From Psammoneis japonica (Eukaryota), in assembly GCA_008632985.1 (NCBI GenBank), contig QPGO01000020.1, positions 496,001 through 560,000 of the forward strand: DNA of 64,000 nt, read 5' to 3'. Of the stretch, positions 13,376 through 64,000 are shown in pieces; the first letter of the stretch is position 1; each line of letters opens with the position of its first letter. The notes below the pieces were generated by a model, which ran no database searches, had not been told where the DNA came from, and saw nothing but the letters and a program-made list of their open reading frames with translations. A program made the position numbers and the translations under genes.

Positions 13376-13894
13376 ACTCGCAGTTTCAAGCCCGCCGCCC
13401 CAAGCCCATTCACCGTGTTCGCCCTTCTTCTTGTGGCTCCTTACATAAAACAGATCGTTTTCCGAAATTGCAGAGGGCTGCGTCAGGGCTGCACCATTTG
13501 CTGAGTGCTGAAAGAAGGCACAACGAAGGAGGCGATGCGGTCGACGCAGCGAAGCACCACCTCCCTCGTTTGAGTCATCAACGCGCTTTGGGTCCACCCA
13601 AATGGCCCTGAAACAATCCCTCATGCAGCAACTTGATGGGCAAGCAATGTCACATTCCCTTTTTGCACTTCGGACACTGGACCGATTAAAATGCATCTTT
13701 TAGCTGGCAAGCATCTCAAACGGTTTAACGCACTCGCAAGAATCCCAATTCTAGGTGCCACAGAGAGAAGTGGCATTGACACCACATGCCAGCAAAGGCT
13801 TTGGCTCTTTCATGGTCTGAAACAAGAAAAAATGCCGTGTTGTGAGAGACATGTGCAAACAGTCGCCAGAAAGCAAACGAGTCAGATTGAGTTC

Positions 13895-15882
13895 CTAACT
13901 GCGCACCTGGAATGCGGTGATCCATGCCTGCTCCCATGGCGTTCTGGTCAAACATCCTCTGCTCATCCTCTTCGCTCATCTCAATCGGAATTTCCGTCAC
14001 CAGGCACTCAGTCGTGAGAACCAATCCAGCGACACTGGCCGAGTTTTCAATGGCGTTAACAGCCACCTTGGCTGGGTCAATGACACCTCTCTCCATCAAG
14101 TCGCAGCATTCCAGGGTGGCAGCATCCCAGCCCCAACCAAACTTCAAGAACAGAGGACAACGAGAAGATTCCGTGAGGATGCATGACAACAACACTGGGG
14201 CAGCAGGATGCAAAGACAACTTGCTCCCTTTTCTTCCATGAGAGCTTGAATCTTGGCTAGAACCACGGCTCCTTCGACACCTACATTCTCTGCAACTTGC
14301 ATGGCAGGAGCCGACAATGCCTTGATGAGAATGGGAGCACCTTGCTTTTCATCGTCGCTGTCCATTGCTTCAATGCTCTTGTCACCCACAACGTTTTGGG
14401 GATGCACAAGGCACGATCCTCCGCCGGGTAAAATTCCCATTTCTCAGCACTGTCGACCAAGTTGAGGGCATCCTCGTGACGGAGCTTCTTGTCCTTCAGC
14501 TTGGTTTCGGTGGCGGCGCCCACTTTGATTCGTGCAATGCCACCGCCTAAGGCAGCGATGCGCTCTGGACACTTTTCACGATCAAAATCCGTGTCCACCA
14601 CTTCGGAATCCTTTCGAAGCTGCAGGACATTGCATTGATGGATTCTTCCTGTTTGCTGTCCGCAACAATCGCAGTGAGTTCCGTGGCTGTTCCCAACACG
14701 TCAATTGTGACAGAGTCAAGCGTGACGCCAACTTCTTCTGCAACAAAGGTGGCACCTGTGGCGAACGCAATGTCTTGTGTGTGCTCCCTTGCCTGTTTCT
14801 TAATCTGGGAGCCTCAATGGCAACCACGTCCAACACTCCTTGCATCTTGTTGACATTGAGAGCAGAGAGGGCTTCACCCGTTACGTCTTTCGCAACATCA
14901 AGATGGGGTCCTTGGTCTTGACCAATTGTTCCAAGAGGGGGACGACGTCAAGGACATTTTCAATCTTGGAGTCCGTGGCCAAGGCACGAGGATTGACCAA
15001 TTCTGCTGCTTGACGTTGTGGGCTTAAAGTGCACGGAGAAATGTGTCCGCTGTCAATGGTGAGGCCCTCAGTGAATTCAATTTCGTCCACCAGAGTCTGA
15101 GACTCTTCCACCACGGTAGATCCATCCTCTCCAACCTTGTCAGCAGCCTGAGCAATGATGCGACCCATGTCAACCGATCCAGAAGCAATGGTGACAATGT
15201 TCCTCAAATCGCTGATGCCAGTCACATCCTTCACAGAGGTTGCAATTCACGTGAAAAAGATGAATTGGGCATGCAGCACAAACACGATGCGGCACACAGT
15301 CGAAAGACGAGTGATGTTAAAATGCAAGAATGGCACAGTGCACAAAAGTTGCCGTGCCTGTGCCAACTCCTTGATTTCGTCCGAAACGATCCTCGTTTCC
15401 TTGCGAACACCTGTGTTGAGTGCGACGAGGTTGACTCCTGACGTGGCAGATCTCATGCCGTCATTGACAATGGCCTGTGTCATGATTGTCGATGTGGTGG
15501 TTTCATCGCCCGCCTTGCTGTCACTCTTGGATGCCACTTCTTGAGTGAGTCTCGCTCCAACATTCTGCCCGTGGTCTTTTAAGGGAAATCTCTCGCGCAA
15601 TCGTGACGCCATTGTTGACAACTTCGGGAGCTCCACAGTTGCAATCCAACACCACGTTGCGACCCTTGGGACCGAGAGTCACCTTGACAGCATTGGCAAC
15701 GGCGTCAATGCCGTCGACGAGGGCTTTGTGCGATTCTTCACGAAAGGTCACCTTCTTGACGTGAAGCGAGGTGTCAAAGGCAACAGGAGGTGTTTTGATG
15801 CGCGAGAGACAAACGCACTTGTGGACGACGACTGTGTCCGCACAATGGCCACCAACAGCGAAACGGCAATGGAAAATCTCAT
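13895..15882 (-). pseudogene. cpn60: Plastid-targeted chaperonin 60 (GroEL family) pseudogene with two introns, TpA-depleted
   Basis: Presequence [14 protein letters not shown]...[75 protein letters not shown]; many frameshifts. Confidence 0.93.
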
Positions 15883-16354
15883 GGTGTGATGGTCGTAAAG
15901 CGTGGCTTTCAACACACACTTAAACACCTGTTGTTTCACACAAGCATCGCGCAAAGTCAAATGCCGACTGTCAGCCAGTCACGTGCGTCCCTCAACGCAT
16001 TTTGGTTTGAAGCTCGTGGACAGCGGAAGACAAGTTGAGAAGCTCTAGATCCTTTTCCTTCCAGTTCGCCAGTCCCCACTGACAAGGAGCTTCTCCTTCT
16101 CGACGCGCCATGGTGTCATTCATGCAGAGTTCCACCGACTTGACAGAATCATCGAGATCGGTCGTCTCAACTGCAACACCAAGATTTGTCGAGACAAGGC
16201 TGAAACGGACGCCAAGAGGTCCCTCGGTTTGTTTGGGAGTGGGTGGAGGAGTGGGACCTGGCACAGGCCGCGGGGTCGGAATGGTGGGAGAAGCTGGTTT
16301 GGGTGTTAGACTACGTGGTCCAGTGCTTTATGATGAATTTAACTTTCGGCGAAG

Positions 16355-16520
16355 ACTGCACTTGTCAATTGATGTTTTGGCGATTTTGTCGCACGTACGA
16401 TCGGATGCGACAAATTTTGTCGGACGTGCGACAAATTTTGTCGCATCCGACAAACCCCGACAAACCCCGACAATGTACGACAAACGCCGACAAGAGCCGA
16501 CAAACGCCGACAGACGGACG
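16355..16520 (+). repeat. Left terminal/subterminal inverted repeat with palindromes (cgacaaattttgtcg) and ~10-bp cgacaaa repeats
   Basis: Read directly; reverse complement of ~22000-22220. Confidence 0.75.
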
Positions 16521-16778
16521 TTTGCGACACTGTCTCCACGAGATTCGCCCAGAGTGCGGCAGAGAGCTAGAGGCCCCAGCTGCCTGCTGATAAAAGGCAC
16601 AGCACAGCAGCGCACACCGGCACATTCCGCTCCACTGTGTAGAAGCGTGCGATGTTGTCCCGGTGTTGACGAGAGTGTGACATTCGGGGACATGGAACAA
16701 CAATGCAAAATTTCGAAATCAAAAAAATCTCATGCTCACACACTGCATGCAAATCAATCGTCTCGCATCTTCTGTTGT

Positions 16779-17741
16779 CCAAACATCACAGAGCTCCGAT
16801 CCGTGCTCCATTTGGTGCTGGACAGCAACGCAAACCGCTTCAAATGCCCAGGGATGCTTCCAAACTGCATGACGGAATCTGTCTCGTAACACTGCAAAGT
16901 TTTTAAGCCGTCCATTGAATGACTCATGCCGACAGCGAGCTCGGCTCTTGAAGTTCTTTAGCATCGGGGGATCAATGGAGCTTGGCAGCGCAATCTTCCT
17001 GCCCGAGCACCCCCCGTCAGCAATGGCACACTTCCCAACTGGGATTTTGTCTCGGAGCGCTTGGTTGAGGTTCCCGAAGGAGCTCTTCGCGAAGTCGCCT
17101 GTCGTGCTCATCCTCCTCACCCGTGAAAATTGTGAGATCATTTTTTCCACCTCTGAAGGGACCGGCAATCCACACACAGTTTGAAGAGTGGGTGTGGATT
17201 CCAATCTCGCCTTGAGAGCAGGACCATTGAATTTGTGAGACCAGTGCCGTCTGTCTTTGTTGAGCCGCGGATGCTTTTTCTCCCAAATCGGAAAGTCGGT
17301 CGTGTCCTCCGTAATTGCAAGCATTTCCGCATCTGGATCATCAATTGACGGAAGCCAAACGATTTTTTGAGCTTTCAATGCTGCGATTCGGCGAATCCAT
17401 TTCCACACATGCTCTCCCCGGGAGTGTCGCTCACAAACTCCAAAGCGCTTTGAAGCAATCTTGGCATTCTTTGGGCAAGTGAAAAGAAAGCAGTGCCCGA
17501 TCATAAACATCTTGAAGCCATTCTCTGACACCTCTTGTTCCTCGGGTCTTGCTGCATTGTTGTTTGTGCTGCATGGATCACGCCAGACATTGGCCACAAC
17601 ATCTGGGTTAGAGCCATGATGAGCCTTGAAGATTTCTCGGCTGGTCTTCAAATGCTTGGCGTCGGTGATGCTGTTGTCAAAATCGATGCGGAGGTGCTTC
17701 ATTCCACGCGTGAGCACATCACTCGCAGTGAGATTGTTCAT
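16779..17741 (-). pseudogene. Harbinger/ISL2EU-type DDE transposase, frameshifted and hypermutated
   Basis: DTTDFPIWE, WSHKFNGPALK, CVWIAGPFRGGKNDLTIF (other frame), IADGGC, RARCRHESFNGRLKNF..L.DRFRH, AFEAVCV.VQHQME. Confidence 0.88.
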
Positions 17742-18354
17742 TTTTGGTTGGAGATCCAGTTGGATGACATTGTGAGATGATTCAAGTGTGCTCCTTGTGT
17801 GATCTGGCAAAATCATCGCTGAAGAGGACTCGCTTGTGTGCATGTGCTTGGACTCGCCAGTGCACTTGCATGCGTTAAAACGGCAGAGCTTCACTTTTTT
17901 GCTTTCAAACTTTCGTGGGAAGTCCAACAATGTCCCAACTCGCATTCCCACAATTGGGAAAAAAGCATCATGATGGATTGTCAGGAGGGTGATCGAATTA
18001 AAGTGTCAAAAGGGAAGTTTGAGAACAAGCTCGCAACCTGCACCAAGGTTTGTCCGCAGGCGTTGCCACTCAGGTTCGATGACAGGTCGTCACCTGACGA
18101 CACGTTCTCAAGCGTCAGCTCGTTCATTTGGACGAGAATGAAGAGCTCCAGGGTCTTCTCGATCAAATCAAGCAGCTTGGCATTTATGACAGAGGGGAAC
18201 AATTCAAACAGGACGTTACACACATTTGTTTGGGCGACAGACGACGACGAGCGACAAGGAAGAGCAAGGACTGGATGCGAGGAGTGACAAGGAAGAACGA
18301 GGAATGTGTGAGGAAGAACAAGGAACAGGAGCAGGTGATAAAGAGTGGTGTGTT

Positions 18355-18470
18355 CTGCTGCTGCTGCTGCTGCCAGCACTGCTGCCACTTGCGAGCACTC
18401 AAGGAACAGAACTGCTGCCACCACTGCTGCAACTGCCTGCTGCCACTGCCACTGCTGCCACCACTGCTTG
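18355..18470 (+). repeat. Mixed CTG/CCA trinucleotide tract (inferred ex-(CTA)n)
   Basis: ctgctgctgctgctgccagcactgctgcca...ctgctgccaccactgctg...ctgccactgccactgctgccaccactg. Confidence 0.8.
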
Positions 18471-18504
18471 CGGCACGGTGCAATGCCAATCAAGAAGCAC
18501 CGGG

Positions 18505-19658
18505 CTAAAACTGAACATTCGCGTTGGAGACCTGAATGTTGCTGGCACCCGCGGCCTTGGTGCCTCCTTCTTCGGCAATCAACCACCACTTGACGCATCC
18601 AGTAATGTCCTGCTTGATGCCTGCAGTTGCCTCTGTCCATTTAAGAAAGACTTCCTGGCCCCTGACGTTGGGTTTCGTCTGAGAAGATGCGTTGACCAGC
18701 TTGGTGCCACGTGGGAAAACCAACATCCAGCATTCACAGGGGTCTTGAGCGGATGCCTTGAGATTCGCATTGAGGTGAGCCTCCTTCGCGACGTCCTTTT
18801 GTGGCGGTGGTGGCAGAGTCTGCTTTTTGTTGGTTCCATCGTTCATCTTGTCATGAATTTGTTCAATGTCCTTGAGCTCAGAGCTCACAGCCGGCCCCTT
18901 GATGCATGCAACACGGCCATGAACACTCGACGGCACAGAATCCGCTCCTGGAATGAAAGCAACCCACTCGTTTCTGTCGAGAACAGAAACAACACGACGA
19001 ATCTCGAATCCCGACCTGTTGAAGGACTGGTGCGTGATCTTGTCAATGTGGACAACTTGAAAGCCACCGAGCCTGCAGTTGTCGAGACCCACAGGAACCC
19101 AATGGGGGTTTTCCAAAGAACCCAAATCAGTTTGAGCAATGAGGTTATCAACAATGGATGCTGACTTCGAGGGAGTCGTCAACACACGGCTGGCGCGACG
19201 AGGGGTCAAGCCAGCCATGCGCGACACATGAGCCACTCGAGGTGGAGACCACAACACGTCATCGTCGTCGTCATCATCACCCAAGTCCACCAATGAAATG
19301 CTGTCAACCATTTCATGAAGCTTCCTCGACTTTGTCCTCAGCTTTATGGTTGGCCTCCTCGGCCTCCTCGGCCTCCTTCATCAAGTGTTCCTCGAGCCTT
19401 GGAGGGTGTCGGCAGCTGGCTCCACCTCACACTTGTGCAACAGTTCGATGTAGGAGGTGATCTTGGACTTCTTGAAGTTGTCACTTGTTTCTGAAACCAA
19501 CGGTGTTTCTTCACATTGCCGTCCATTCATCCTCCTTTTCCGTAGAAACGAGGGTTCGAATCACAAATGTCCTTGAGTTTGGCTGCAAAGAGCCCGCCAT
19601 CGTGCTCAAGGTCCTGGACCAACTGCGCCCATTTCACGTTTTTCTTGACTTCCTCCAT
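18505..19658 (-). pseudogene. Frameshifted accessory ORF inside the transposon, function unknown
   Basis: Protein-like segments in consecutive frames (MEEVKKNVKWAQLVQDLE...; 268-aa ORF 18505..19311 with no Tyr). Confidence 0.45.
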
Positions 19659-20088
19659 GATTTTACATGAGCTGAGTGAAAGTGTAACATGACAAAAGAC
19701 CGTTGTGGCGTTTTGGGATTGATGTCGTTGGGTTTTTGAACTTAATGTCGTTGGGTTTTTGAACTGCGCAAAGAGAGAAATCATTCGCGGAAGAAAAATT
19801 CCAAGAATTTGAAGTTTCACTCCAAACGAAATTTGAAATTTTGAAATGTTAAAGTGCCCGTGTGAAGATTCACATTGAAATCATGGAAAGTTCTTAAAAA
19901 CCGACCAGGATTGGATTTGTAAAAATTTCAATGTCGTTGCGTCTGCACTGTCAGATTTGAATTGACCCCCACAGCGATCGACCGCAGCTGGGGTCTGCTA
20001 GCGAGAGCTGCTCCGTCCCAATCCGTTGCGACTCATGACTCACTCACAATGTCGTGCGCATGGCACAGGGCCTAATTTGTCTGCAACG

Positions 20089-20722
20089 ATGCCGAAACCA
20101 AAGAATTCTGAGTGTGTTGACTGGACAACTAGTGAGGCAAAGATGGTGCTATATGCCGATTTGCAGAGTGGCAGGTTGTCACTGAACGAGAGCGAAGTGA
20201 CGGCCGAAGAAGCATGGGAGCGTACAGAAACCATGCTGCATTCAAAGGCATCGTCATCTTTGAACAATTCAACCTGCGCCTGCGAGATCATCGTAAACAA
20301 ATTCTGTTGAAGAGAGAGAAATCGAATGATCAAATGAAGGCATTGATCCATGATCGACGGCTCTGTCCAAGGAAGGACGTGAACAACCGTGGCGAGCCGG
20401 TGTGGGACATTTCACCAGCAAAAGAACTCCTCAAACAAGACCTCTTGCAGAAGAAGCACTTGCACATGACACCATCCGAGCTTCGCGCCTCAAGACCAGA
20501 ATTCAAATCTTCTGCAAGACAAAGTTCAAGGAGCACATCCATCAAGCAGTCCGCAAGGAGAAATTCATAAACTGCCTGGAGCAAGTCCGCAAGAAGAAGG
20601 AGGAGAAGGCAAAACAAGACAAAGAGAAAGCAATGCAAGCGAGGATAGAGCTGCAGAGAAAGAAGGAAGAAGCTCGAGCAAAAGAGGAAGCAGAAAGAAA
20701 CGGCAAACGCAGATGCAACTAA
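20089..20722 (+). pseudogene. Frameshifted accessory ORF inside the transposon with an internal two-fold W..S.AK..L..DL motif
   Basis: DWTTSEAKMVLYADLQSG... and VWDISPAKELLKQDLLQK..MTPSELRASRPEF..FKEHIHQAVRKEKF across three frames. Confidence 0.5.
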
Positions 20723-20910
20723 AAGCAGCAGCATTGCCGCAGCAGCAGCAGTGGCAGTGGTGGCAGCAGCAGTGGCAGCAGCAGCAGCATCCATTCATTA
20801 GTTCTACAGTGGCAGCAGCAGCAGCACTAGAGCATTCTTTCCATTCCTTGTGGCAGCAGCAGCAGTGCAGCAGCGAGGAGCTCCTGGCAGCAGCAGAGGC
20901 AGCAGCAGTG
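20722..20910 (+). repeat. Mixed CAG/TGG trinucleotide tract (inferred ex-(TAG)n)
   Basis: cagcagcagcagtggcagtggtggcagcagcagtggcagcagcagcag. Confidence 0.85.
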
Positions 20911-21457
20911 GTCAAACTAAAAAGAGCACTTGCAGACAAGGCAGAAGCAGAGATTCTACAACAGTTAAGAAGTGGAGATTCTACAATGCCAAATTGTCAG
21001 TTCTGCTGCCAGACAAACAGTTGCAGTGCCGAAGACGACAAGTTGCCAACGGGAACGCCGTGCCCCCCCCCCTGGCTCTTTCAAGACAATTGTGACACCA
21101 TTGCTGCATCTCATTTCCCTCAAATGCAGCAACAGCACCACATCCCAAAGGCACCATAGAGTGTGCGAAGTGCAATGCTTTTGTCTTGGACAAACAAAAT
21201 GTCGCCAGAAACCACAGGAGGGAAGCACCCGTCACTGTCCCCATGAGAGTCGCAAGTTTCGAGGTGGAAAATCATTCCACCATCGCCCATCATAGTCTCC
21301 CCATCCCAGTCCATGCAAGGAAGAGCAGAGAGAATTCTGGGACTGCTGGCGAGCAAATCACCAAGCGAACATGCAATCAACACCACTGATGGGCAAACCA
21401 ACTCGGGAAATGACATGGGATCCCCAAACCGCACGTTCAATTCGTCCAACAGAAGTG

Positions 21458-21916
21458 TCAAACAGGAGCTGCGCAGCTCAACTGCTGAGCTGATGATTGA
21501 GCTTGGAACCCAATCTTCAAATGTGGTGTCACCGTCAGCGGCACGCATTGATAGAAATGGCAGAAATGCTCGGGATGGAGGAACGGCAGTCCGTTGTCGA
21601 TGAGCTGGTTAAATTCGCCAGTGTTGGCATGGAAACTCCGCATGAGGTCACACATGTCTTCAAGCAAGGAAAGGACCTCCATCCATCGCTTGATCATCAG
21701 TTTTTTTCCCACGCCAATGTTGTCTCGGAGATGCGGTCGGGTGCTTGCAAGGCGTTTCCACGCAACATGTGTTTCTCGACCAAGGCACCAGCGCACAGCC
21801 TCGAAACGCCCCAGACTCTTGACATCAAGGAATGTCAAGATGTGATCTTGCAGCATGCTGTTGTGGATGAAATGTTGGAGACCGCCGAGAGCGGCATGAT
21901 CGTCGCTTTGCATCAT
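21458..21916 (-). pseudogene. Possible F-box-like gene fragment carried within the transposon
   Basis: LQDHILTFLDVKSLGRFEAV....W resembles the F-box pattern (I.sFL....L.r...V.k.W). Confidence 0.35.
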
Positions 21917-21999
21917 CGTGCAAAAGAGACACAGTGTCAACGGAGACGTTGGCGGTTGCTGTGGCGTGTGCAGTGGGGGGGGTGGGTGTTTCGTTCGTG

Positions 22000-22220
22000 A
22001 GTCGTCGTGTCGTGACGTGACGTGACGTGTCGTGACGTGTCGTGTCGTGTCTTGTCGTGTCGTGTCGTGTCGTGTCTTGTCGTGTCTTGTCGTGTCTTGT
22101 CGGATGCGACAAAAATTTGTCGTATCCGACAAATTTTGTCGGATGAATTTTCGTCGATGACATCGATCGCCAAATTCTGTCAATTGCCCCACTTGTTGAA
22201 ACGACATCGCCAAAGTGCAG
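22000..22220 (-). repeat. Right terminal/subterminal inverted repeat: (gtcgt/gacgt/gtctt)n pentamer array plus cgacaaattttgtcg palindromes
   Basis: Read directly; mirrors 16355-16520. Confidence 0.75.
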
Positions 22221-22384
22221 GTTGGTTGTTAATGACATTGATCATTTTGTGACTTAGTTGAACAATGTTTCTGTCCCGTTTATCGCCAACCCGGACATTT
22301 TGTCGCAATTCGCGTCTTTTCGTGACAAATCATCAATTCATTTAAGAAATTGTCGCCAAATGCGACAAAATGCCGTGTGTCCCT

Positions 22385-23570
22385 GCGCATGTCTTTGGAA
22401 GCTGCCGCTGGTTGTTTGCCAGAGGTGAAATGCTGATGTGATGATTGCCTGTCAAAGCAGCCCGTGGCTCCGTCGGGGACACGCCACAATGTTGCCAGCA
22501 AACTCGCTTTGTGCATGTGCATGGAGTGCTTTTGCAGGTCCAACCATGGAGTGGCATCATGCATCACAGACATCGCCGCCCAGCCAACGCACTTTTTGAG
22601 TGCTTGTGCTGTTTGGGTGCTCTGGAGAGCCCCCCAGCTGCTGCATTTTTTGAAATGCATGCTGAGCACCTGCTGACATCCAAGACCAAGATGGTGTGCA
22701 TGACAGAGGGCAGCCTTTTTCATGAAGGGTTGTGAGGCAGCTCAGATCGCCACTTCAGTTGCTCTTTGAGCACTCTTTGAGCACTCTCTTTGAGCACCTT
22801 GCACACTCACACATCTGAGCTCCCAAGGCCTTCAATGAGCTGCATTCTCCATGCCCCACAGTGTTTGAAGATCTGCTTTGTTGCACTGGGGTTGCTGTGA
22901 TGGCCATCTTCTTGCTGAGTTGCCACACTTGACAGCTCGCGCTTTTTTCAGAGTTGACTTCCATTGTCATTTTGAGCAGATGCAAGACATGAACAGAAAA
23001 ATGCAACAGAGAGAAGCCATGATTCTGCAGTCATGTGTGCAGTTGCTGGTGATGTTGACAGGGCAGCAGCACTCTCACAGCTCTTGCCAATGTTGTGTGC
23101 AAAAAAGTGCAAAAAATGCCGAGTCAGATCAGCAAGGGTTTTGAGGCATGATGCAAAAAAAAAGCACGTGTGCCTCCAATCTTCATCCAGTCCAAACCAA
23201 AGCAGCAGACAATGATTTTGCACAACAGGCGTGTTTCTGCATTCAGTGTGATCAACCAGGCTTCTCTTCAAAGCTGCTCCAAGCATCTGACTCTCAGTGG
23301 AAGTGAGTCAACCTGCAAACTTCTTGTGATGCTCCTGCTCAAATGGCACACCGTGAGCTGTTTTTGGTTGCTCCACTTGATGTGCTTGCCAAGGAACATG
23401 AGAGTGGCCAGCAAATGCTCTTTTGCACAACTCAAGGGATTCTTCAAACTCTGATGGCTGGCCCATTGTATTAAAGTGATGGTGGCCGGCACACTGCTTT
23501 GCAGCAGTTTGACCCAAGAAGACAGCACTCTCCAAGACACGGCAGCCACTGCAGCCAATTGCAACACTTG
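22385..23570 (+). repeat. Dispersed repeat copy B (homologous to ~12355-13375), heavily depleted of both TpA and CpG
   Basis: Collinear shared blocks with copy A. Confidence 0.85.
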
Positions 23571-24668
23571 TGTTCACAGAGCTGCTGCCACAAGCCTGTG
23601 ACAACAACATGTGTGAGCCAAACAGTGAGCATTTCATGATTCCCCATGTGAGAGCCACTTTCTGCAAAGAATCACCTGCAGACAAGGGGCACAGCTTGTG
23701 CTCTCATGTCCTCACATGAAGCTGCTGGCTGTTTGGCACTTGTGTGACTGCCACAATTGTGCTCAAGAACCTGAGTCTGGACATGGAGATCAGGTGCTCT
23801 TGTCAATGACATGCAGCTGGCAACTCAGCCAGCTCTGCCAATGTGCACAGAACATCTGAGACAGCTGTTTTCAAATGTCTTCATCCAGCGACATTGCACG
23901 ATGGGCACTTCCCCAAAACTCCAGAGAAGGGTGGTGCCAACGCTGCTTCATTCAGAGGGTCCCAATCTTGCCTCTTTGTTGGCTTGTTGTGGTCATGGAC
24001 ATTTGACACCAGACATCCTCTTTGGACCATTGAAAGCTTTCTGACATGTGAGTTTGCTGCTTCGCTGTTCTTGTGGGCACACATGCGCCAGGCTCGTCAA
24101 GCTGTGACTTCTCCTGTCAACATTGTGGGTTTCTGCAAAATGGCACACAAAGGCAGCACATGATGAAAGAAGTGAGTTTTCTGTGCATCTCATCTTTGAT
24201 GAGTTGCTCAACATTCAACCTTGTTTTTTCTTCGTCTTCCTCATTTTCATTTTCATCTTCTCTTCCTTTTCTCAGCTTGGGCCACCTTGATTGACAGACA
24301 CTCTCCAGATGACCAGCTCACTCTTGCGACATAAATCCATCTTTAGAAAATGATGGCGACGGACAGTGGTGACCTTTCGACGGAATGCCGCTCTGCGGGC
24401 ATTCAACAGCTTCAGAGCAATGATGCAATGATGTCGTTGCTTTGCATGGCCTCGGAATTTTTTGTTTTTGATTTTTTTTCTTGTGGTACTGTGTGGTGTC
24501 TTTGGAAATCATTTTAAAGCTACGTCTCCGTAGGAGACATAATCGTATTCAATCTGTGTTGAAATGTACTTACGCCTATTTTACGTGCTTCTATACCATG
24601 AAGCCGGAATTGCGGGTTCCACGTTCTCTCAGAAATTTGTCAAGCAGCCAGCAGAACGGAGCCGCACC

Positions 24669-26529: not shown

Positions 26530-28290
26530 GCTCGTGCGCAAGAAATTGACGGCGTCTCCAAATCGAACTACGACTGACCAGGATTCGCACAGCAACAGCT
26601 GCCACTGGAGCCAGTGGAGCTGGCCAACGCAGCGGACGCAAAAAGCTGTCCGCGCGCGACACACACCTCTCAGTTCGGCTCCAACAATGTCTGTGACCTT
26701 GGCAACTCTCAGGCTAAAGGAGTGCACTCCATGCTTGCCTTGGTCAGGTCCTGTTACAATGGCAGTCCAGAGGAAAGCAAAGCTGCTTGCAAAGAATTGG
26801 GAGAACTTCTCTGTTCTTGCCATCACGGTGCGGCAAAGAAAGGGTGCTGTCTTTGCATTGGAAGAGAAAAACTTTTCACTTTGTTCAACAGCAACAAGGA
26901 AAACACCCATCTGATCAAGTGCTTGACTCTGCTCCTCAAAAGCTCAAAAGGTGGAGGGCAAAGGTCACCCATGCCTGCAGAGGCAGCACCATGAAGCCAT
27001 GAAAAGCAAGTGTTGCCAAAGCAAGCAATCCCCCCAGAAGCCACTTGCTGTTTTTTGAGCACATCTTGGCTGGAATGTTGCACTTTGTTCCCAACACTTG
27101 ACCTGCTTCAAAACACAGCAATCCTGCCAGCGAGAGAATCAAATTTTGATTTTTTGCAAGAGGGGCCAACAAGAGACATTGAAGAGTGTTTTTGTGGGGC
27201 AGAGGGTCACAGCAGCATCTTGAGTTGTTTTTGGGTGTGTGCAATTATCTGGCAAAGGCCAAGTCTGCCAATCCCAAAATGTGCCAACTTTGCAAATTGA
27301 GCACTGGACAGATGACAAGCAATGGTGTGTTCTTGACAAAGGTCTTCCAAAAACTGGCGCACTTTGCATGGTGCAGCTCATTTGTTTTTTTGACAAGTGT
27401 GCATCAAATGTGCTCAACAGCAGACCTGCACACTTGCAGTGCCCTTGGCCAGCTCAAAAGTGCCAGGCAGGCAACCAGATGACTGCCTGACAAACAACCA
27501 TGCAAACAATGAAAGCAGTGCCCAATGAAAGAAGAGTCAACATGTATGGGGAGCTTTTTGGCTTTCTTTTGAAAACTTAAATCTCACCTCATTGTCATCA
27601 TGGCGCGGATGGTTGGGTCTCACATGCGCTGTTGCTCTTGTGGCAGTGCTGGTGCACTGACAAACCATGTTTTGTGTGGAGGGAGTTTCTGAATTTTTCC
27701 AAATCAGTGATTTGGATGGCATGTGGTCTGACCCTGGCTGGTGCAGTTGCTGGCAGAGTGCGGCAATGCACGGTGTGAACAGCAACCTTGCAATGTGGAG
27801 ACACCCAGCTGCGTGGCTGCGTGCACAGCATGAGTTGCTGCTCTGCAGGACATCAAGCTTGCAAGATGGTGACTCTCTCACAATCTTGCAAATTGACAAG
27901 GTTGAGGAGGTTGTCATTTGTTTTTTCATTGTCACGAGCCAGTCTGGCAGTGTTGTGTTTCTTTGTTTTTGGGGCGTTGTCGGCGATGCTCGGCTTTGGG
28001 CACATTTGCTTGGGGGGCAACTCCAACACCCCGCACATTTTTCTAGCAGAATTTTTGCACTTTTAGAGCCACAGGCAGAGATGTTGCCTCACACAAAAAA
28101 CATTGCCATTTGCTTTGGCTCACTGCTATTTTTAGAGTGTTGGCTTCAACCGCCGCGCTGATCAGACCGCGCCCGCGCCCGCGCGCTGCCCGCATCACCG
28201 CCATGACGCTCGATGCCCGCAACCGCAACCCGCAACGCACAGCCCATGGTACTTTCTCCCCTTTCTCTCATCACCCACCACCAGCACTCT
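26530..28290. other. TpA-depleted decayed insertion between the two RING-like paralogs
   Basis: TA nearly absent, CpG low in the core, CpG-rich ends; no identifiable protein. Confidence 0.65.
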
Positions 28291-28343
28291 AACGTAATAT
28301 CACTCCCAACATTGATCACCAACCACACTTACGAAGCTCCATC

Positions 28344-32600: not shown

Positions 32601-32699
32601 TTTTGACAGAACCTCCCTGAGCCAAGTGAGTGTGTGCCCAATGTCTTGTTTTGTGTGGAGACCATGCTGCAGCTGTGTTGGCTCATCTTCAACATTTGT

Positions 32700-35908: not shown

Positions 35909-35973
35909 CTGCACTCATCATTCTTGCCACTGTGTTTTCTGCACTCATCATTCTTGCCACTGTGTTTTCTGCA
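35909..35973 (+). repeat. Perfect 30-bp tandem duplication (ctgcactcatcattcttgccactgtgtttt x2)
   Basis: Read directly. Confidence 0.9.
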
Positions 35974-55819: not shown

Positions 55820-58800
55820 CGCCACCTGCCGATTTCTCTGTTTCCCGCCACCGCGTCATCGCGTGCTCCTGCATTCTGTGTGTTTGCATCAATCTTCCTC
55901 CTCCCTGTTCTTCATGGGAAGAAACGGTGTCTGGACAAGTAGGGAGTGAGTTGAGTAGGGCCATGCGAGCATTCATTCTGTTCTTTTGCCTCTCCACAAC
56001 AATTGAGAAGGAGCAGCAGCACAATTTTTGTGTCAACATTGGGGGGACGCGGCTTGAGGCTTGAACAAAAAAGTTGGTGCAAAGAGTCGGGCAGCGGGTT
56101 GTTGGGAGGTGGTTTTTTGCATTTCATCCAGAGTTCATCATGCATGGGCAACATTGCGGCTGGGCGGGGGGTTGCAGATTTGCACTGGGATGGACACAGT
56201 CAGTTGCACAGCGATGCCATCCGAGCAAGGACGACGGACGACAGTCTGTTTTCAGTTTGCAGCTTCAGGATGCGCGCAACATGTGGAGTCAGCCCAGTTC
56301 ACCGCAACATCGTCGGGAGTTCGCTGCAACAAGGTCTCGGCGAAAGTCCAGCATGAGAAACAAGGGGCGCTGTTTGTTCCATGGTTTTGTCAAGCTGCGC
56401 GCCATCAACGATGACATTCCCAGCTGTGTCTGCCGCTTGGCTCTCCCAACAAAAGACCACATGTTGAATGGACTGCTCAGGTGCATGTGCCACAATCGTG
56501 GAGCAAAAGTGGCAGCACGGTTTTGGTCAATCGCAAATGGATGTTGGATGAAACATGTCGGGAACAACAAAAAATGCTTGCTCTCTGGCTTCCCCTCTCA
56601 GGACTGGAGCTGAGTCCAAGGCCATCACTCACGTCAGTTTCATCACGTGTGACTGGGTGTCGTTTCCGAGGATGCAGCATTCGGTTCGAGGACTTTCTTG
56701 TCATGCCAGAAAATGTGTCTATGAAACGTCCATCTGAAGATTCCTGTGCCGCAAAGTGTTCCACAAAGTGCAAGGAATGATCGGGTTTGGAGTGAATGTT
56801 CACCCGACTTTTCCTTGGAGCACGAATGGACTTAAAATGGAGAGTTTTGACCCGCGCAACTCGACATGGAAGAAAGATGATTTTCTCCATGGTCACTGCT
56901 CTTCTCAAGACTGGGAACAACCTGACAGTGGGATGTGCGATGGCGCTTCCGAGAATCATGCTCCCTGTTGTTTGGACGTTTTCTCTTGTCACCCGAGCAC
57001 TCATCGACAAAGAGGCATTCATTCGAAGGCTGGCCAGCAATCTGTTGCATGACACTTGTGAAGTGATTGCGCTGCAAGCGCTGGTTGCAACACTGGAGGA
57101 GCCTTGATTCATCTGAATGCACATGAATCGGCAACCATCCAGAAAGTTCCGGCAAAACTGGCAAACGCGACAGTCTCAAAATGCCTTCGGATGGTGTGTG
57201 CGGTCCCAAGGCAGTCGACTCCGTCAACTCATCAAGCAAGTGCATGTTGGAGGTTTCATGTTTATTTGGAATGGCAGTCACCTGAACGAGCGGCTGCCAT
57301 TGGAGACATTTTGGAAGGCTTCCGATTCTCGAAAGCTGCACGTCACGTTCGAGCTCCGCTTTGGTCAGCCGCCGGCTTCTTTTCCTCCCCTCGGAAGTCT
57401 TCCATGTCATTCAAGCTCGGCCCATGGCTTCCATTGGAACTGTGCGGGTAGAGTGATTGCATCTCATGGTTTGTTGGTGCATCATGGATGTGATTGATTT
57501 TGAAAAGCATCGTGAACTGTGTGTGGTCTTTCGAGCGCTGAGATTTTGGCGTTGCAAGCAAGGTTTGTGTGACTGCGCATTTATCGTAGAAACGCACAAG
57601 GGTGTCGCACCACAATCTTCTTGTCAAAATGTCCGATCGCCAAAAATGGTGTGTTGTTCAAGGCATGTGCACAACGAGCACACAGCAGCGCAATGTCAGA
57701 CAGACGACAGTCGTGCATTTTTTGTGATTTGCGCGACAAATTGCCGTCGACGCCGATGATGACGATGACATTTTTCTCAAGCTCGTGCAGGACGACTTTG
57801 AAATGGGCACTCATCACAATGATCGATTGCACCATTTAGAACACGTGTGTGTAAAGAAAGTCCCCCTGACGAAGTCTCAATCGTTCAATGATGAATGCAC
57901 AACAGTGACAGGTCAGAAAACAGAGCTCGGCATTGGCGTGACGTTTTGCTTTCGAACGGAGATTGCTCTCGGGGACTGTCATGACTGAGTGCATTCTCAA
58001 ACTCAACAAACTAAATGTCTGCAATGACAAAAGACTCTGGGACATGTCGCTGTCATCGCTGTTGTCATGACAACGCACGTGTCATGTCACCGATTTTCAG
58101 GGATGATGCGTGCAGCGCGCACGAAGTTTCCAGTGCAAAAAAAATTCAGAAAGTCCAATCATCTTGCCATCCATCAGCTCGTTGTGCGATTGCCTTAACC
58201 GAAACTGTGTGAAGCATTTGAAAACCAATTGGTTCCTCCTCTCTAAGGTGGAACTCTCTGCTTTTGAAGTCTGAAACCGAAAGATTTTGGATTGCCGCAC
58301 TCACTGCTGTCAGAAAATGGAGGCGTGATGATTGCTTGCACCAATCATTTTGCTGCATTTTTTTACCTGTCAAGTGAGTTTTGCACCGGGCGTCCAAACC
58401 AATTTTAATGCACAATGGTTGTTCTTTCGAAACAGGGTGCCACTGTGCGGCACGCACTTCTGCACGACCCACGCGACCTGACTAATGTGCGTTGGGGCCA
58501 GAGCAGTGCGTGGTGCTGGTTGTTTTGCTTCTGACCGTTCTGTCTTCTGTGAGGTTTCACGAGTTAACTGTGCATGTTGATGTTGTCTAATTCGAGGTGC
58601 GGTGGCTTGAGTGAAAGTGCAAGTGTGCGAAATTTATGCATTGATGCAGTTGTCTTTGCAAAACAGCCAGCAGTTGTGACTTGCACCCATTCCATCATTT
58701 CTGTCCATGCTCGATCCGCGGTGGCTCAAGTGAAAGTCCAAGTGCACGAAATTTACGCATTGATGCAGTTGTCTTTGCCAAATGGTCAGTTGCAGCTTGC

Positions 58801-59760
58801 GCCCATTCCATTGTTTCTGCCCGTGCTTGCTCCACAGGATCCTTGCTTGCTCCTTCTCCTGCTCCGTTGCTCCCGCTTGTTCCAGCTCCTCCTCGGTGAA
58901 AAATCTCCCACCAGTCTGTGGTGGTGCTGCCGCCCACACTGCCTTTAGCTCCTCCATGGTTGAATCATCCCTGGGCACGACCGTTGCTTCCACACGACAA
59001 CCGTCCACTCTCGTGTTGTCTGGCACAAGTGCAGATGAGACATCACAATTTCCTGAAGCAAGCTCGAACGCCGCTCTTGCTTCTTCCACCGTGATCTTCT
59101 CCCCGTCTTCTTTGTTCATTGCTGACTGAAACAGTTCCGCATCTGTCTGCACCCTTTTCTTGTCTTCTCCAGTTTTCTTTGGCTCATCTGACTTCTTTGT
59201 TTGTTGTTGCAAATCCATTTTTTTTCTCTGTTGCTCCGTTTTGTGCGACGTTTGCGTTCACGTGCTCTTGGTTTGTTGGAGTCATGGCAACTGCCGCCGC
59301 AGTCATGCCTTCAGCGCCCGTGAGTTCTCCCGCAACTTCCGGAGCTGCTTTGCCAGACGGAACGATGTTCTCCTCCGCCATTCTGACGCCGTGATGACAG
59401 AGGTGTGCTGACTGCTGTGTGCTGTGTTCCAGGCATTGGCGATCCACATCCTTCTGTGCGCACAAACGTGTGACACTTCGTGCCGAATTCGACGTGCCCA
59501 ACGCACCCCACCTGCCGCTCCCGAGTTCCTCAACGGCCTGCCTCCACCACTTGTGAAGTCGCCGGGACGTGGCGTGTCTGCACCTGTGTGCATCCGTCTG
59601 CACTGCGTGCTGCGGCACTGCTGCACAGCACCCCGCATCAAAACTTCATCAATGTTTATTTTTTGCTTTCGATTCCTTTTCTCTTCTTCTTCTGGCTGAG
59701 AGGAACTGCTGGACAGCCTGGGTGTGTCCAAAAAAAAAGAAACACCGATGAAAATTGTGA
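55820..59760. other. TpA-depleted decayed repeat/TE-like region, unidentified
   Basis: TA scarce while CpG is largely retained; fragmentary protein-like frames. Confidence 0.6.
58599..58833 (+). repeat. ~119-bp tandem duplication
   Basis: gcggtggct..agtgaaagt.caagtg..cgaaattta.gcattgatgcagttgtctttgc twice. Confidence 0.9.
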
Positions 59761-59768
59761 TCACCCCG

Positions 59769-62700
59769 TGTTGGAAAATGGTGAATTAAAAGTTCAAACA
59801 CCGAAATTAGATGGCGCAAAGAAGACGCATGCGTCAGCGCTCATGTGCTCTGCGTGAGGCACTGAAACTGCCAATGAAAGCAGTCATTGTTCTCTTTCAA
59901 CTCTCAGAAAGTATTGTGATAACAAGCTTGTCTATTTTAGCCTCAGGATCAGACCTCAGAGGACTGAGGTGGCTCTGAAATGGTTGCCAGAAGGATGAAT
60001 TACAACAGTTAAAAGAGAATGATCCAGCTGAGAGCTGTGAAAAGAAAGTAAGAAAGAAAAGAGTCATTCTCACGGTGTGTGAGATATTTTGCTGCTTTGC
60101 CTTTTTGTCATGAGTGGAAGAGGCAAAGGCAGAAATGGCAATAGAAGCCAAGGAAGAGGACCCTCAGGAAGGGGCAACAAGAGTGGCAAGCAAAGCAACA
60201 AGGGCATCAATGATCATGTCTGTCACGTTGGAAGTGCCAAGCAAGCATCTGATTTTCAGATTGCTGCTGAGTTCATCATCAACCACATTGAGAAGACTTG
60301 TGAGTTTGGAAATGACATTGCAACTGCACTCAACACTTTCACTCCATGTGACATGAGTTCTAAGAAGCCGACTTTGCAGGTCAGCTTGACTGGAGATGAC
60401 AAGGTGGACGTGCCATTGAACAAACAGCATGAAATTGAGTTCAAGACAGAATTTGATGCTCACATCAAGAGGACCCAAACTCATGAGAACAACCTCATCA
60501 AGGCTTGTGCTTTGCTCTGGGAGAGATGCTCCAAGGCCATGAAGAACAAGATTCAAGCAAGAACCGACTTCCAAGCCAAAATTGAAAATGATCCTGTCGA
60601 ATTGCTCAAGGCCATTAAGGAGCATGCATTGAACTGCCAAGAGCACAGGCATGACATGGCTGTCATCTCAGATTCAATGAGAGCAGTGCTAGAAACCAAG
60701 CAGAAGGAGAAGGAGAGTCTCCAAGATTGCACCAAGAGATTCAGGGTTGCAAGGGACATCATGAAGTCTCACATTGGAGGACCAATTGTCCTCACCAAGG
60801 CAGTGCAAGGCATGTCAGAATGTGACGAGCACAATGCGGATGCCATCAAGAAGTGTCAAGAAAAGGCGTTCAGCCAATTGATGGGTTACATGCACTTGGA
60901 GAATGCAGACCAGCGCAAGTGTGGATCAATTCTAACAGGATTGAACACTCAGCAGTCCCTCAAGAACGACCAATGTCCCAAGTCTATTACGGAAGCCAAC
61001 ACGGTGTTGAGCAACCACACTTTTGACTGCGTTGGTCAGCCTGACAACCACCGTAACAGGAACAATCAAAACAACAACTCTGACTCCAAGAAACAAGAAG
61101 AAAACCAAGAAATTGCGCTGTCCTTCACTCAGTTAGAAGGCAAGTGTTGCTGCTGTGGCAAGGCTGGACACAATTCCAAAAATTGCTGGGAAAGGAAAGG
61201 AAAACCTCAAGCAGAATGGGCCATCAACAAGGCCAAAGCCAAGCAAGAAGCAAGCAACACTCAAGCAAGTGACGATGCCAGCACAGCCAACTCTTCCACC
61301 AAAGAATCCACTGGAACAAAATCTGCTGTTTCAGGATGGGCTGGCACGCACATCGATGCATCTCTCTGCCAGGATCAATCTGGCAGCATGAGAGACTGGA
61401 TTTTATTGGACAACCAGTCCACAACCACAATCTTCTGCAATGAGAAGCTCGTTGCAGACATCCGTCCGTCGGATGAAGCCATGCGTTTGCACACCAATGG
61501 CAGAGTCCTAGTCACGACACACAAGGCCACGGTGCCAGGGTTTGGTGAGACTTGGTTTAACCCAGATGCAATCACCAACATTTTTGCTTGCTCTGACATG
61601 AAGAAGAAGCACAGAATCACAAGTGATTCTAAGCAAGACAATGCATTCACCGTTCATCTCCCCAACAAGAAGGTTGGGTTCGAGGAGGACGGAAAAGGGC
61701 TGCACATTTACAAGCCCAAGATTAACGACACTGGAGCTCAGCTCCAATTTGTGCAGAGTGTGGAAGAGAACAAGAAGTTCTACACTCCACGACAGTTCAG
61801 AAAGCCAAGAGGGCTAGGGAACTGTTGCACGCATTGGGAAACCCAACCGTGAACGATCTGAAGGCCATCATTCGCATGAACAGCATCAAGAACAATCCCG
61901 TCACAACGGAGGACGTAGATTTGGCCGAGAAGATTTTTGGACCAGACATTGGAAGTCTAAAAGGCAAGGTGACAAGGCAGAAGCCAGACCCAGTTGTAGA
62001 AGACTGCACAGAGATCCCGAAGGAGCTCATTGCAGCACAGCACAAGGTCACTCTTTGTCTGGACAGCCTCAAGGTGAATGGATTGCCATTCCTCACCACA
62101 GTGTCACGAAACATTTTTCATCGCACGGCACAACCGCTCAAGGACTTGACCCAACCAACTCATCAAGAAGCTCTGGAAGATGTGCTGCGAGTCTACAACA
62201 AGGCCGATTTGAAGGTCACACGCATTCATTGCGACAACGAATTCAGGCCCATTGGGAATGCACTAGAAGACAAGTTTGATCTCAAGGTGAGCTGCGCAAA
62301 TGCTCAGGAGCATGTCCCACAAGCCGAAAGAAACAACCGAGTTATTCAAGAACGTGCCAGGGCAGTCTGTCATCAGCTGCCATTCAAGCATCTGCCAAAA
62401 CTCATGGTCGAAGTCATGGTCACCGAAGCTGCTAAGAAGCTCAATTGTTTTCCAGCCAAGCACGGCGTTTCCAAACATTGCAGTCCAAGAATGATTCTCC
62501 ATCAAAAGAATCTAGACTGTGACAAGAGCTGCAAGATCACGTTCGGCACTTGTGTGCAAGCTCACAACGACCCGGACCCCAAGAACACCCAAGAGTCACG
62601 GACCTTAGATTGCATTTGTTTGCACCCCACTGACAGCAACCAGATTGGACATGAGTTGCTGCACTTGCAAACCGGCAAGAAGATCACTCATCGCAAGGTC

Positions 62701-64000
62701 ACCCCTGTGCCCATCACTCCCGCCATCATGAAGCAGGTTCATCGTTTGGCTGAAATGAACAAGATGCCCAACGGTCTCAAGATTCAGAGCCGCACTGGAG
62801 CTGTTTTGTATGACAGTGCTTGGCTTGCAGGAGTGGATTATGATGAAGATCAATTTGAAGACGAAGGTTGTGATCTAGAAGAAGACATTGAAGGCTGAAG
62901 ACGATGAGGAAGAAGAGCTAGACTGGGGAGACTATGACAGAGTTAGTCAAGAAGAGCTGCAAGACACAATTCGGGAACAAGAATTGGATGAAGAAGCCAG
63001 CTGCATCAGTTAACAACAAGACGAGACTCAAGAAGAAACCTCCAATGATGAGCATCTCGGAGACAATGACGAAGTTGGTTCTCAACCATCAGACGGCAGC
63101 GGAATCTCACAAGAAATCGATGACATGATTGACCACATTGATGAACAACAGAGGCTGGAACAAGAGAAGGAACACTCTCCGGAAGTGCAAGAGATCATCG
63201 ACGAAATGAAAGACCTGGAATCTGATGACGAATCTGGAGAGGAGCAGAGTGAAACCAAAGAAAGTGTCCAAGAAGAGCCTGTTGCTACATCCAGGGCAGG
63301 AAGGACTCTCAAACCTCCAGTTAGATTGGGAGACTGCCAATGCCATCTGCAGACTCAAGCCCATTCACAAGAAGAAGCGTGCAGCTTGGAGACGGCCAGA
63401 ATCATGGCCATGACAATGTGCCAGTGGAACGAAAAGGTTAGCATGATTTCCACTGATGAAGAAGCACACCAATTTATTCAGACTTGCAGCTTGGCACGAG
63501 GACTCCAGAAGTTTGGAGAAGAAGGCCACAAGTCGGCAGTGTTAGAGCTGAAGCAAATCCATGACAGAGTGGTTTTCAAACCCATTCACATCAAGGACAT
63601 GACTCCACTGGAGAGGAAGAGAGCCATGGAGAGCCTCATGTTTCTCACAGAGAAGAGAGATGGACGAATCAAGTCAAGGTTGTGTGCAAACGGAAGCACG
63701 CAACGAGAGTGCATGGACCGAGATGAAACCGCCAGTCCGACAGCATCAACAGAATCCATTCTCATTGCAGGAGTGATCAATGCCAAGCAAGGCAGAGACG
63801 TCATGACGGCAGACATTCCAAACGCATTTGTGCAAACGGACATCGAGGTCAAGGATGAAAAGATCATCATGAAGATCCGTGGAAGGATGGTGGACATGTT
63901 GCTGGAATTGGATCCAGACACTTGCCAGGACTGCGTCGTGTGCGAAGGCAAACACAAGGTTCTCTACGTTGAAATGTTGAAGGCACTCTACGGAATGCTG
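59769..64000 (+). mobile_element. Ty1/copia (CoDi-like) LTR retrotransposon running off the window; putative 5' LTR from TGTTGG at 59769
   Basis: Gag, zinc knuckle, protease, integrase, RT in copia order; the LTR boundary is tentative because the second LTR is not in the window. Confidence 0.9.
60110..64000 (+). pseudogene. gag-pol polyprotein, frameshifted (~61800, ~62890), with pervasive Tyr->Cys/His
   Basis: CCCCGKAGHNSKNC; WILLDNQSTT; LCLDSL / IHCDNEF / HVPQAERNNR; IKSRLCANG, VMTADIPNAFVQT, LKALYGML. Confidence 0.92.

Follow-up and report, generated by a model that had tools for sequence, protein, structure and literature searches.

TpA-depleted blocks of mobile and passenger DNA in a pennate diatom: candidates for a TpA-directed hypermutation process

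Genes and TpA-depleted blocks of the window

In a 64,000-nucleotide stretch of DNA from Psammoneis japonica (contig QPGO01000020.1, positions 496,001 to 560,000; hereafter the window), genes for adaptin, ribose-5-phosphate isomerase, a kinase-FHA protein, TRM5/TYW2-like proteins and a multicopper oxidase alternate with discrete blocks in which the dinucleotide TpA has been nearly erased and TpG and CpA have accumulated. The composition analysis covers this single 64-kb window, in which the blocks (Table 1) add up to 30,655 bp and the remaining 33,345 bp serve as normal DNA. The blocks hold 175 TpA steps against 1,290 in normal DNA, while approximately 1,186 would be expected across them if the rate of the neighbouring genes applied. 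Expressed as an observed/expected (o/e) ratio, TpA stands at 0.09 in the pooled blocks and at 0.58 in normal DNA, and its distribution in windows of 500 bp is bimodal, with values of 0.01-0.18 for the blocks and 0.51-0.61 for the five gene regions between them. Normal DNA would be expected to hold around 19 TpA per 500 bp; many block windows contain 0-3. In parallel, the o/e ratios of TpG and CpA climb from about 1.1-1.25 to 1.44-1.95. The edges are defined to tens of bases, as indicated by the consecutive TpA positions found across them or on either side of the adjoining TpA-free tract (508/701, 29968/32120, 36759/36979, 46082/46806, 47893/48345 and 55804/55940). The original prediction for this DNA had placed the blocks at the same positions and had described the genes between them as using TpA normally, and both statements agree with these counts.

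A feature that the prediction did not mention is that part of the blocks is also depleted of CpG. In six of eight sub-blocks CpG falls to o/e 0.19-0.46, and it remains at 0.80-0.81 in 13500-22400 and 55820-60000; more finely resolved, the CpG-depleted spans are 1-690, 22400-24330, 26680-27930, 30720-36970, 46230-48340 and 60000-64000. The density of all pyrimidine-purine (YpR) steps is unchanged (0.2423 per base for normal DNA, 0.2398 for the blocks). Only the shares shift, with TA going from 0.16 to 0.024, CG from 0.235 to 0.135 and the sum of TG and CA from 0.605 to 0.841, as transitions inside YpR steps predict. The residual TpA steps are distributed in a near-Poisson manner (variance/mean 1.15-1.4), and no periodicity was detected in the spacing of residual TA and CG in the blocks. 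With TAA and TAG gone, TGA is left as the sole common stop codon, and long, meaningless open reading frames (ORFs) are frequent on both strands.

Table 1. Blocks, degraded genes and duplicated segments of the window, with dinucleotide ratios as observed/expected (o/e)
Feature	Position	Strand	Remarks
TpA-free block, continues past the left window end	1..690		2 TA in 690 bp; o/e TA 0.05, CG 0.46, TG 1.93
Unmutated paralogue (control) just beyond a block edge	12386..12937	+	self-BLAST pair with 22439..23032, 67% identity; o/e TA 0.31-0.55
Composite TpA-depleted block, 10.8 kb	13500..24330		80 TA in 10,831 bp; CpG near normal to ~22400, then depleted
Sub-block of 13500..24330	13500..22400		o/e TA 0.14, CG 0.81
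Cpn60/GroEL gene copy, nuclear type, with intron-like insert	13923..15882	-	Pfam Cpn60_TCP1 pieces; tblastn to diatom Cpn60, aa 1-591, shifting frames
Intron-like insert in the Cpn60 copy, 129 nt	15231-15361	-	donor reads GCACGG
PIF/Harbinger-type DDE transposase remnant (DNA transposon)	16722..18005	-	54 homologues, most with PF13359 DDE_Tnp_4; best 46% identity
Sub-block of 13500..24330	22400..24330		o/e TA 0.02, CG 0.22
TpA-free paralogue inside block	22439..23032	+	counterpart of 12386-12937
TpA-depleted block flanked by two genes, unclassified repeat	26530..28290		11 TA; o/e TA 0.10, CG 0.45
Most extreme block, unclassified repeated DNA	30020..36970		5 TA in 6,951 bp; o/e TA 0.01, CG 0.21, TG 1.77, CA 1.93
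Internal duplication within block 30020-36970	32716..34101	+	copies 32716-33348 and 33432-34101
Inverted duplicate pair, TRM5/TYW2-like gene (PF02475), not hypermutated	37683-38913 and 43746-45059		93% identity, 1,218 aligned bases
TpA- and CpG-depleted block, unclassified	46100..48340		4 TA; o/e TA 0.03, CG 0.19
TpA-depleted block, continues past the right window end	55820..64000		73 TA; left part unclassified, right part Copia-type
Sub-block of 55820..64000	55820..60000		o/e TA 0.11, CG 0.80
Sub-block of 55820..64000	60000..64000		o/e TA 0.18, CG 0.46
Copia-type gag(-protease) ORF	60083..61849	+	CCHC knuckle; 6,042 homologues at E<=0.001; open for 589 codons
Reverse transcriptase RVT_2 of the same Copia element, cut by the window end	63014..64000	+	PF07727, E=6e-07, slightly under gathering score

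Direction of change in degraded genes and duplicated DNA

The affected DNA had been said to include a long terminal repeat (LTR) retrotransposon, a DNA transposon and an intron-containing gene copy, and these can now be named as a Copia-type element, a PIF/Harbinger-type DDE transposase remnant and a copy of a Cpn60/GroEL gene whose closest matches are diatom Cpn60 sequences. Since tyrosine is encoded by TAY (Y = pyrimidine), conserved tyrosines allow the lost TpA steps of these genes to be polarised. The gag ORF contains 3 Tyr among 589 residues, compared with a median of 4.0% Tyr in 150 homologues. When its consensus columns are defined by a residue common to at least 60% of 60 homologues (n=188), one of 16 Tyr columns is kept and the others read Cys (TGY, 8), His (CAY, 6) and Ser (1), while 147 of the 172 columns for other residues are kept. 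The DDE remnant has no Tyr in 428 residues (median 3.1% in 50 of its 54 homologues); none of its five conserved Tyr columns is kept (2 His, 2 Cys, 1 Ala) and 103 of 142 other residues are. In the Cpn60 copy both conserved Tyr are lost, to TGT and CAC, with 245 of 285 other conserved residues retained. Over the three degraded genes, the 23 conserved Tyr columns thus comprise 1 Tyr, 11 Cys, 9 His and 2 other residues, and 73-86% of non-Tyr conserved residues are kept. The Cpn60 copy further shows N>D, K>E and I>V changes after T-ending codons, as TA>TG changes spanning a codon boundary produce, and its DGTTT motif reads DETTT. The donor of its intron-like insert, GCACGG, may be the outcome of GTACGG after TA>CA, in which case the process may destroy splice donors too. 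The copy is full-length and probably a pseudogene that arose by DNA-level duplication.

A second polarisation is provided by duplicated DNA. The paralogue just beyond a block edge has 17 TpA steps that face TG (7), CA (6) or other dinucleotides (4) in its counterpart inside the block, a result with which a second alignment agrees; its CpG steps face TG in 12 cases, CA in 9 and CG in 6. Between the two copies of the internal duplication in the most extreme block, 119 transitions and 40 transversions are found, and 72 of these transitions form 36 adjacent TG<->CA doubles, which indicates that the same ancestral palindromic steps were resolved independently in each copy. Such doubles also occur between the window and other genomic copies that are represented among the contigs of sequencing run X1 (see below). 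The inverted TRM5/TYW2-like duplicate, in a region with TA o/e 0.61, differs by 45 transitions and 40 transversions with 2 TG<->CA doubles and has 39 TA in common. As an additional observation on this gene, the summed X1 depth over 37683-38913 and 43746-45308 reaches 341-413 in comparison to approximately 60 for single-copy genes, so that it seemingly belongs to a multi-copy family, and still it is not TpA-depleted.

Together, the paralogue and protein-consensus comparisons bear out the TA>TG and TA>CA lesions that had been proposed; these are confined to mobile or degraded DNA. On this comparative evidence, the loss of TpA is shown to be directional mutation rather than native composition, and the blocks started with ordinary composition. 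It had been recognised in the original prediction that active elements could themselves be poor in TpA and Tyr; the homologues carry normal amounts of both, and this objection fails. A selective variant, in which the elements avoid TpA, for instance while escaping a nuclease or silencer that reads TA, is very improbable: the replacement of conserved Tyr by Cys or His and the change from DGTTT to DETTT are destructive rather than adaptive, a host pseudogene is affected as well, and the relatives of both transposon families are normal in TpA and Tyr. The description of the blocks as "repeat-targeted" does not hold in the sense of fungal repeat-induced point mutation (RIP), as the 93% identical inverted duplicate of 1.2 kb, a single pair, is not hypermutated. 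Since this duplicate is untouched and the sequence of 12386-12937 is mutated only in the copy inside a block, duplication alone appears not to be the trigger, and targeting of a chromatin domain is inferred instead.

Support for the bases themselves comes from three sequencing runs, X1, X2 and X3, of one sample and one study, of which X1 is stored as Logan contigs. X1 contains a fraction of 0.86 of the words sampled from 28300-38299, and its contigs run over the TpA-free blocks at a word depth of 53-61, equal to that of the flanking genes (20000-39999 examined). They differ from the window in few letters and mostly in small gaps, e.g. 23 gaps versus 9 letters in a 3-kb contig, which fits accurate reads compared with a long-read assembly and speaks against a base-calling artefact. 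The X2 contigs fall mostly on the genes and leave the blocks largely uncovered, and no X3 contig could be placed. That the blocks are a product of faulty base calling or polishing in modified, repeat-rich DNA is highly improbable on this evidence. Methylated repeats are known trouble spots for sequencing, the window is apparently a long-read assembly, and the small gaps relative to X1 are in keeping with such an origin. Against an artefact, accurate-read X1 contigs reproduce the TpA-free bases, even if possibly from the same sample, the changes are protein-coherent (Tyr to Cys or His in frames otherwise kept) and restricted to mobile or dead DNA, and other public assemblies contain Tyr-poor homologues in which these columns likewise read Cys or His. 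These homologues, P0387 and P0354 for gag and P0439 and P0432 for the DDE remnant, contain 0-0.95% Tyr, bear Cys or His at conserved Tyr columns and, judged from their sequences, look like further hypermutated copies. As to the independent reads on which the original prediction had made its case depend, the single-copy-depth X1 contigs may stem from the source sample of the assembly and do not amount to independent confirmation. Separately, TG<->CA differences between the window and the sole covering X1 contig were recorded at 20050-20051, 20863-20867, 21522-21523 and 23247-23248, where the contigs have a depth of 37-61, about single-copy at all sites but one. They could represent alleles, in which case mutation in place would be demonstrated, or stem from a paralogue.

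Beyond the three identified features, a Pfam search of 146 block ORFs and of read-through frames in which stops were replaced by X returned only the Cpn60 pieces and RVT_2. The read-through translation comprised six frames of 30020-36970, 15900-22400 and 55820-60100 and the three forward frames of 61726-64000. No Pfam domain was found in the six read-through frames of 30020-36970, and the ORFs of 26530-28290, as well as the DDE and gag ORFs themselves, had no Pfam match. A search for LTRs and terminal inverted repeats by BLAST and by a purine/pyrimidine-coded comparison, in which transitions are hidden, yielded no convincing pair. X1 contigs of 80-95% likeness heap on the blocks (20000-39999 examined), indicating that these belong to repeated families. 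Within the composite block, a short, very high-copy repeat occupies 21334-22667 (summed X1 depth 548-3,573); its segment 22144-22052 has an inverted partner at 16405-16503 in the same block, and the repeat shows a tandem peptide-like periodicity in read-through frames.

Among the neighbouring genes, the multicopper oxidase has its best named matches in the raphid pennate diatoms Fistulifera solaris (71%), Seminavis robusta (66%) and Cylindrotheca closterium (63%), with unnamed matches of up to 79%. Exact look-ups of five proteins of the window returned no recorded entry. An ORF in normal DNA between two blocks (49502-50365) gives a weak match to zf-CXXC (E=1.2e-4, below the Pfam cut-off), a domain that binds unmethylated CpG in other organisms. 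The ORF at 831-3050 encodes 739 aa with normal TpA and no Pfam match, and includes internal direct repeats (1452-1573/1947-2068, 92%; 1521-1750/2226-2455, 79%).

Sequence context, strands and possible chemistry

The depletion of TpA is strongly dependent on the flanking bases. From normal DNA to blocks, the number of YTAR steps (R = purine) declines from 204 to 89, that of steps with one such flank from 674 to 75 and that of RTAY from 412 to 11 (chi-square 132, p=2e-29), and in both large blocks YTAR is in excess and RTAY nearly gone. Retention relative to normal DNA is 0.90 for TTAA, 0.45 for CTAA/TTAG, 0.25 for CTAG, 0.14 for GTAA/TTAC, 0.13 for both CTAC/GTAG and ATAA/TTAT, 0.08 for ATAG/CTAT, 0.04 for GTAC, 0.03 for ATAT and 0.02 for ATAC/GTAT. 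RTAY is therefore erased fastest and YTAR more slowly, while TTAA is hardly touched. An additive per-strand model, in which one flanking base sets the rate of each strand, fits all ten tetranucleotide classes but fails to predict which product forms at Tyr codons (7 Cys and 4 His after a pyrimidine). The contexts of the TG<->CA doubles are mixed (R..Y 11, Y..R 7, Y..Y 7 and R..R 7).

Concerning the strand, Cys and His replace conserved Tyr in a ratio of 11:9, and along gag the two alternate in 9 runs where approximately 7.9 are expected, which leaves no sign of strand-coordinated clusters. Together with the presence of a cut-and-paste DNA transposon and an intron-bearing gene copy among the targets, the near-equal ratio argues for DNA-level action on both strands, as originally proposed, and takes out sense-strand RNA editing and one-strand deamination of complementary DNA (cDNA) as the main route. 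ADAR-like A-to-I editing of RNA copied back into DNA and error-prone repair by polymerase eta, which makes A>G changes at WA (W = A or T), are accordingly the alternatives of which least is left, and we regard them as extremely improbable. The prediction had named the polymerase as one option; AA, GA and AT shift little, and AA, at o/e 1.22 in the blocks versus 1.14 in normal DNA, is not depleted as WA mutagenesis would require. For RNA editing, sense-strand action should yield Tyr>Cys only, and 9 of the 20 changes are Tyr>His; editing fixed by retrotransposition would also have to reach the DDE transposon and the intron-bearing copy. ADAR prefers a 3' G, and contrary to this preference TAG survives better than TAC or TAT. 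What speaks for an ADAR-like activity is its preference for U before the edited A, as given in a preprint on the alga Bigelowiella natans (Mettrop et al., bioRxiv 10.64898/2026.01.13.699255).

The superimposed loss of CpG differs from that of TpA in both tempo and context. Where TpA has already dropped from 0.58 to 0.13, CpG has moved only from 0.98 to 0.80, and the oldest-looking blocks have reached 0.21 for CpG and 0.01 for TpA; assuming a common start, TpA is lost some 3-7 times faster than CpG decays in this DNA. The flank bias of CpG loss has the opposite polarity, TCGA being the most depleted (retention 0.13) and GCGC the least (0.53). This difference in bias marks CpG loss as a separate layer. 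In our view it represents a second process, for which the decay of methylated CpG is the simplest candidate; the bias itself may reflect the preference of a methyltransferase or cytosine deamination of the TC type. CG>TG/CA loss is likewise seen in several of the related environmental elements.

Taken together, the TpA-free blocks are in all likelihood silenced mobile and passenger DNA that was rewritten in place by a TpA-directed process. The window would be nuclear DNA of a pennate diatom, and its silenced portion would consist of the Copia retrotransposon, the PIF/Harbinger transposon, unclassified repeats and the dead Cpn60 copy. At each TpA step a T:A pair is converted to C:G, and on the written strand TpG and CpA result in nearly equal proportions. 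The conversion halts within tens of bases of the edges and leaves the neighbouring genes untouched. Presumably enzymatic, it would be steered to a silent chromatin domain rather than set off by duplication. Ordinary CpG>TpG/CpA decay proceeds in the same DNA at a slower pace and with its other flank bias. Through the loss of Tyr codons and other TA-bearing signals, the element would be inactivated heritably.

Several observations weigh against this interpretation. The gag-related loci retrieved from metagenomes (n=22) lack comparable TpA depletion, 21 of them having a TA o/e of 0.52-0.81 and the lowest 0.31, so among diatom elements sampled in this way the process is not a general one. For most block DNA the element type is unassignable with Pfam. 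X1 may be the source sample of the assembly, and its support would then not be independent. Under the simplest single-strand flank rule, which requires a pyrimidine 3' of the A, T-TAY codons should have turned into Cys nearly without exception; this failed, as Tyr codons preceded by a pyrimidine became Cys in 7 cases and His in 4. Some residual TTA and TAA could be newly made by C>T rather than spared. Finally, the sharp edges are also compatible with elements that were mutated before insertion. In this alternative, an extrachromosomal copy (cDNA, excised transposon or foreign DNA) is hypermutated prior to integration, in a manner similar to APOBEC3. Edges sharp to tens of bases, the individual TG/CA pattern of each copy and the otherwise well-kept gag frame are in its favour, and we consider it quite unlikely nonetheless: both strands are equally hit (11 Cys to 9 His), unlike in single-strand cDNA deamination, the affected DNA includes an intron-bearing host gene copy together with the sequence around it, as well as a paralogue of unique DNA from next to the block, and TpA depletion grades with CpG decay over the blocks, as if both had accumulated after insertion. 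In B. natans, moreover, the mutations reported in the preprint arise in DNA already integrated (bioRxiv 10.64898/2026.01.13.699255); rewriting in place, as directly seen there, would by analogy apply here.

If rewriting by a TpA-directed process is accepted, its chemistry is tentatively assigned to adenine deamination, at a little under even confidence. Adenine in 5'-TA-3' on either strand would be deaminated to hypoxanthine and read as G. The preference for a 5' T and a 3' pyrimidine resembles UAC of the tRNA-Arg anticodon loop, the substrate of bacterial TadA. TpA is palindromic, and A>G on one strand leaves the same trace as T>C on the other. Thymine might thus be the mutated base, with a dioxygenase of the TET/JBP type generating 5-hydroxymethyl- or 5-formyluracil at TpA that mispairs with G. 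In line with this alternative, 5-formyluracil mispairs with G, dinoflagellates carry 5-hydroxymethyluracil preferentially at TpA and TpC, the products TG and CA arise near 1:1, and the effect is domain-like with sharp edges. It is judged unlikely, since a literature search on 5-hydroxymethyluracil and TET/JBP found no diatom paper and the B. natans preprint favours an ADAT2-like adenine deaminase, a proposal its authors leave at that stage (bioRxiv 10.64898/2026.01.13.699255). Returning to the in-place process as a whole, it is conceivable, at less than even probability, that a dedicated, chromatin-guided editor of double-stranded DNA with RTAY preference, a "reverse RIP", is common to diatoms and chlorarachniophytes or evolved twice in them. 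Such an editor would be an adenine deaminase or thymine oxidase new to chromosomal DNA, outpacing CpG decay and erasing nearly every site.

Comparison with known systems

The original prediction knew of no description of such a process, a statement that has been overtaken by the 2026 preprint, which describes A:T>G:C hypermutation restricted to TpA in integrated viral DNA of B. natans. In its mutation-accumulation lines, two regions of integrated viral DNA accounted for 231 of 302 nuclear mutations; those in the two regions were nearly always A>G or T>C, all were at TpA and they occurred in only some lines, with a de novo TpA>TpG/CpA rate approximately 1000 times above background (Mettrop et al., bioRxiv 10.64898/2026.01.13.699255). 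The same source reports 124 clusters that are poor in TpA, rich in CpA and TpG and enriched for reverse transcriptase and DDE domains, and proposes an ADAT2-like adenine deaminase (bioRxiv 10.64898/2026.01.13.699255). The diatom window shares with this system the A:T>G:C transitions, as 20 of 23 conserved Tyr columns read TGY or CAY; the TpA target with both TpG and CpA as products, as AA, GA and AT are little changed; and the restriction to discrete foreign or mobile regions, as the remainder of the 64 kb examined is ordinary. The differences concern the host, a diatom (Stramenopiles) instead of a chlorarachniophyte (Rhizaria), and the target, transposons and a pseudogene instead of DNA of nucleocytoplasmic large DNA viruses (NCLDV) and virophages. 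In addition, mutation in B. natans was caught de novo, whereas here the end state alone is seen, and the NCLDV region given in the preprint has a Rho of 0.45 (partial depletion) compared with 0.01-0.18 in the blocks. A host gene copy among the targets, superimposed CpG decay and the strong precedence of RTAY over YTAR with TTAA spared are found only here; flanking context is not part of the main text of the preprint. A literature search returned no diatom report of TpA loss, two papers on diatom transposons and one on mutation rate included.

RIP of ascomycetes resembles the process in being a heritable hypermutation by transitions that strikes only mobile or repeated sequences, ruins coding capacity and leaves sharp-edged tracts. 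It differs in its direction, as RIP makes C>T changes, mostly CpA>TpA, and enriches TpA, whereas here TA falls to 0.01-0.18 and TG/CA rise to 1.44-1.95. RIP is also described as triggered by duplication (PMC3318451, PMC7296669), while the 1.2-kb, 93% identical duplicate of the window keeps its TA, with the qualification that this is one pair and that the thresholds of RIP need not fit a diatom. On both grounds, opposite direction and the insufficiency of duplication alone, fungal RIP was rejected. Diatom transposons are reported to carry 5-methylcytosine (5mC) methylation (PMC9998398), and the window shows the CG>TG/CA loss that is typical of 5mC transposons, with o/e 0.19-0.46 in six of eight sub-blocks. 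Unlike in CpG decay, TpA is erased, its loss is the larger of the two and extends to 13500-22400 and 55820-60000, which have nearly normal CpG; deamination of 5mC cannot remove TpA and was rejected as an explanation, remaining as the second layer. With APOBEC3, which acts on cDNA, and ADAR, which acts on double-stranded RNA, the process has in common that editing with strong dinucleotide context serves as a defence against mobile elements. These enzymes attack one strand of a replication intermediate and only retroelements, whereas the changes in the window lie on both strands and extend to a DNA transposon and a gene copy.

TpA-specific hypermutation of integrated DNA has so far rested on one preprint and one rhizarian alga. 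With two lineages of the SAR group (Stramenopiles, Alveolata and Rhizaria) now spanned, it becomes a candidate for a widespread genome defence that targets ordinary transposons and passenger host DNA beyond viral inserts. The flank rule, with RTAY erased fastest and TTAA spared, represents a constraint on any candidate enzyme, and diatoms offer methylomes, chromatin maps and CRISPR tools for testing deaminase or TET/JBP candidates. There are also consequences for annotation, as spurious ORFs are lengthened, transposon proteins are hidden from Pfam, composition-based annotation of diatoms is distorted and gene callers are misled. Judged by the traces in the sequence, the process is of the same kind as that of B. 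natans, in a different SAR lineage. Processes of this kind have come to be known only very recently; new here are the lineage and several properties.

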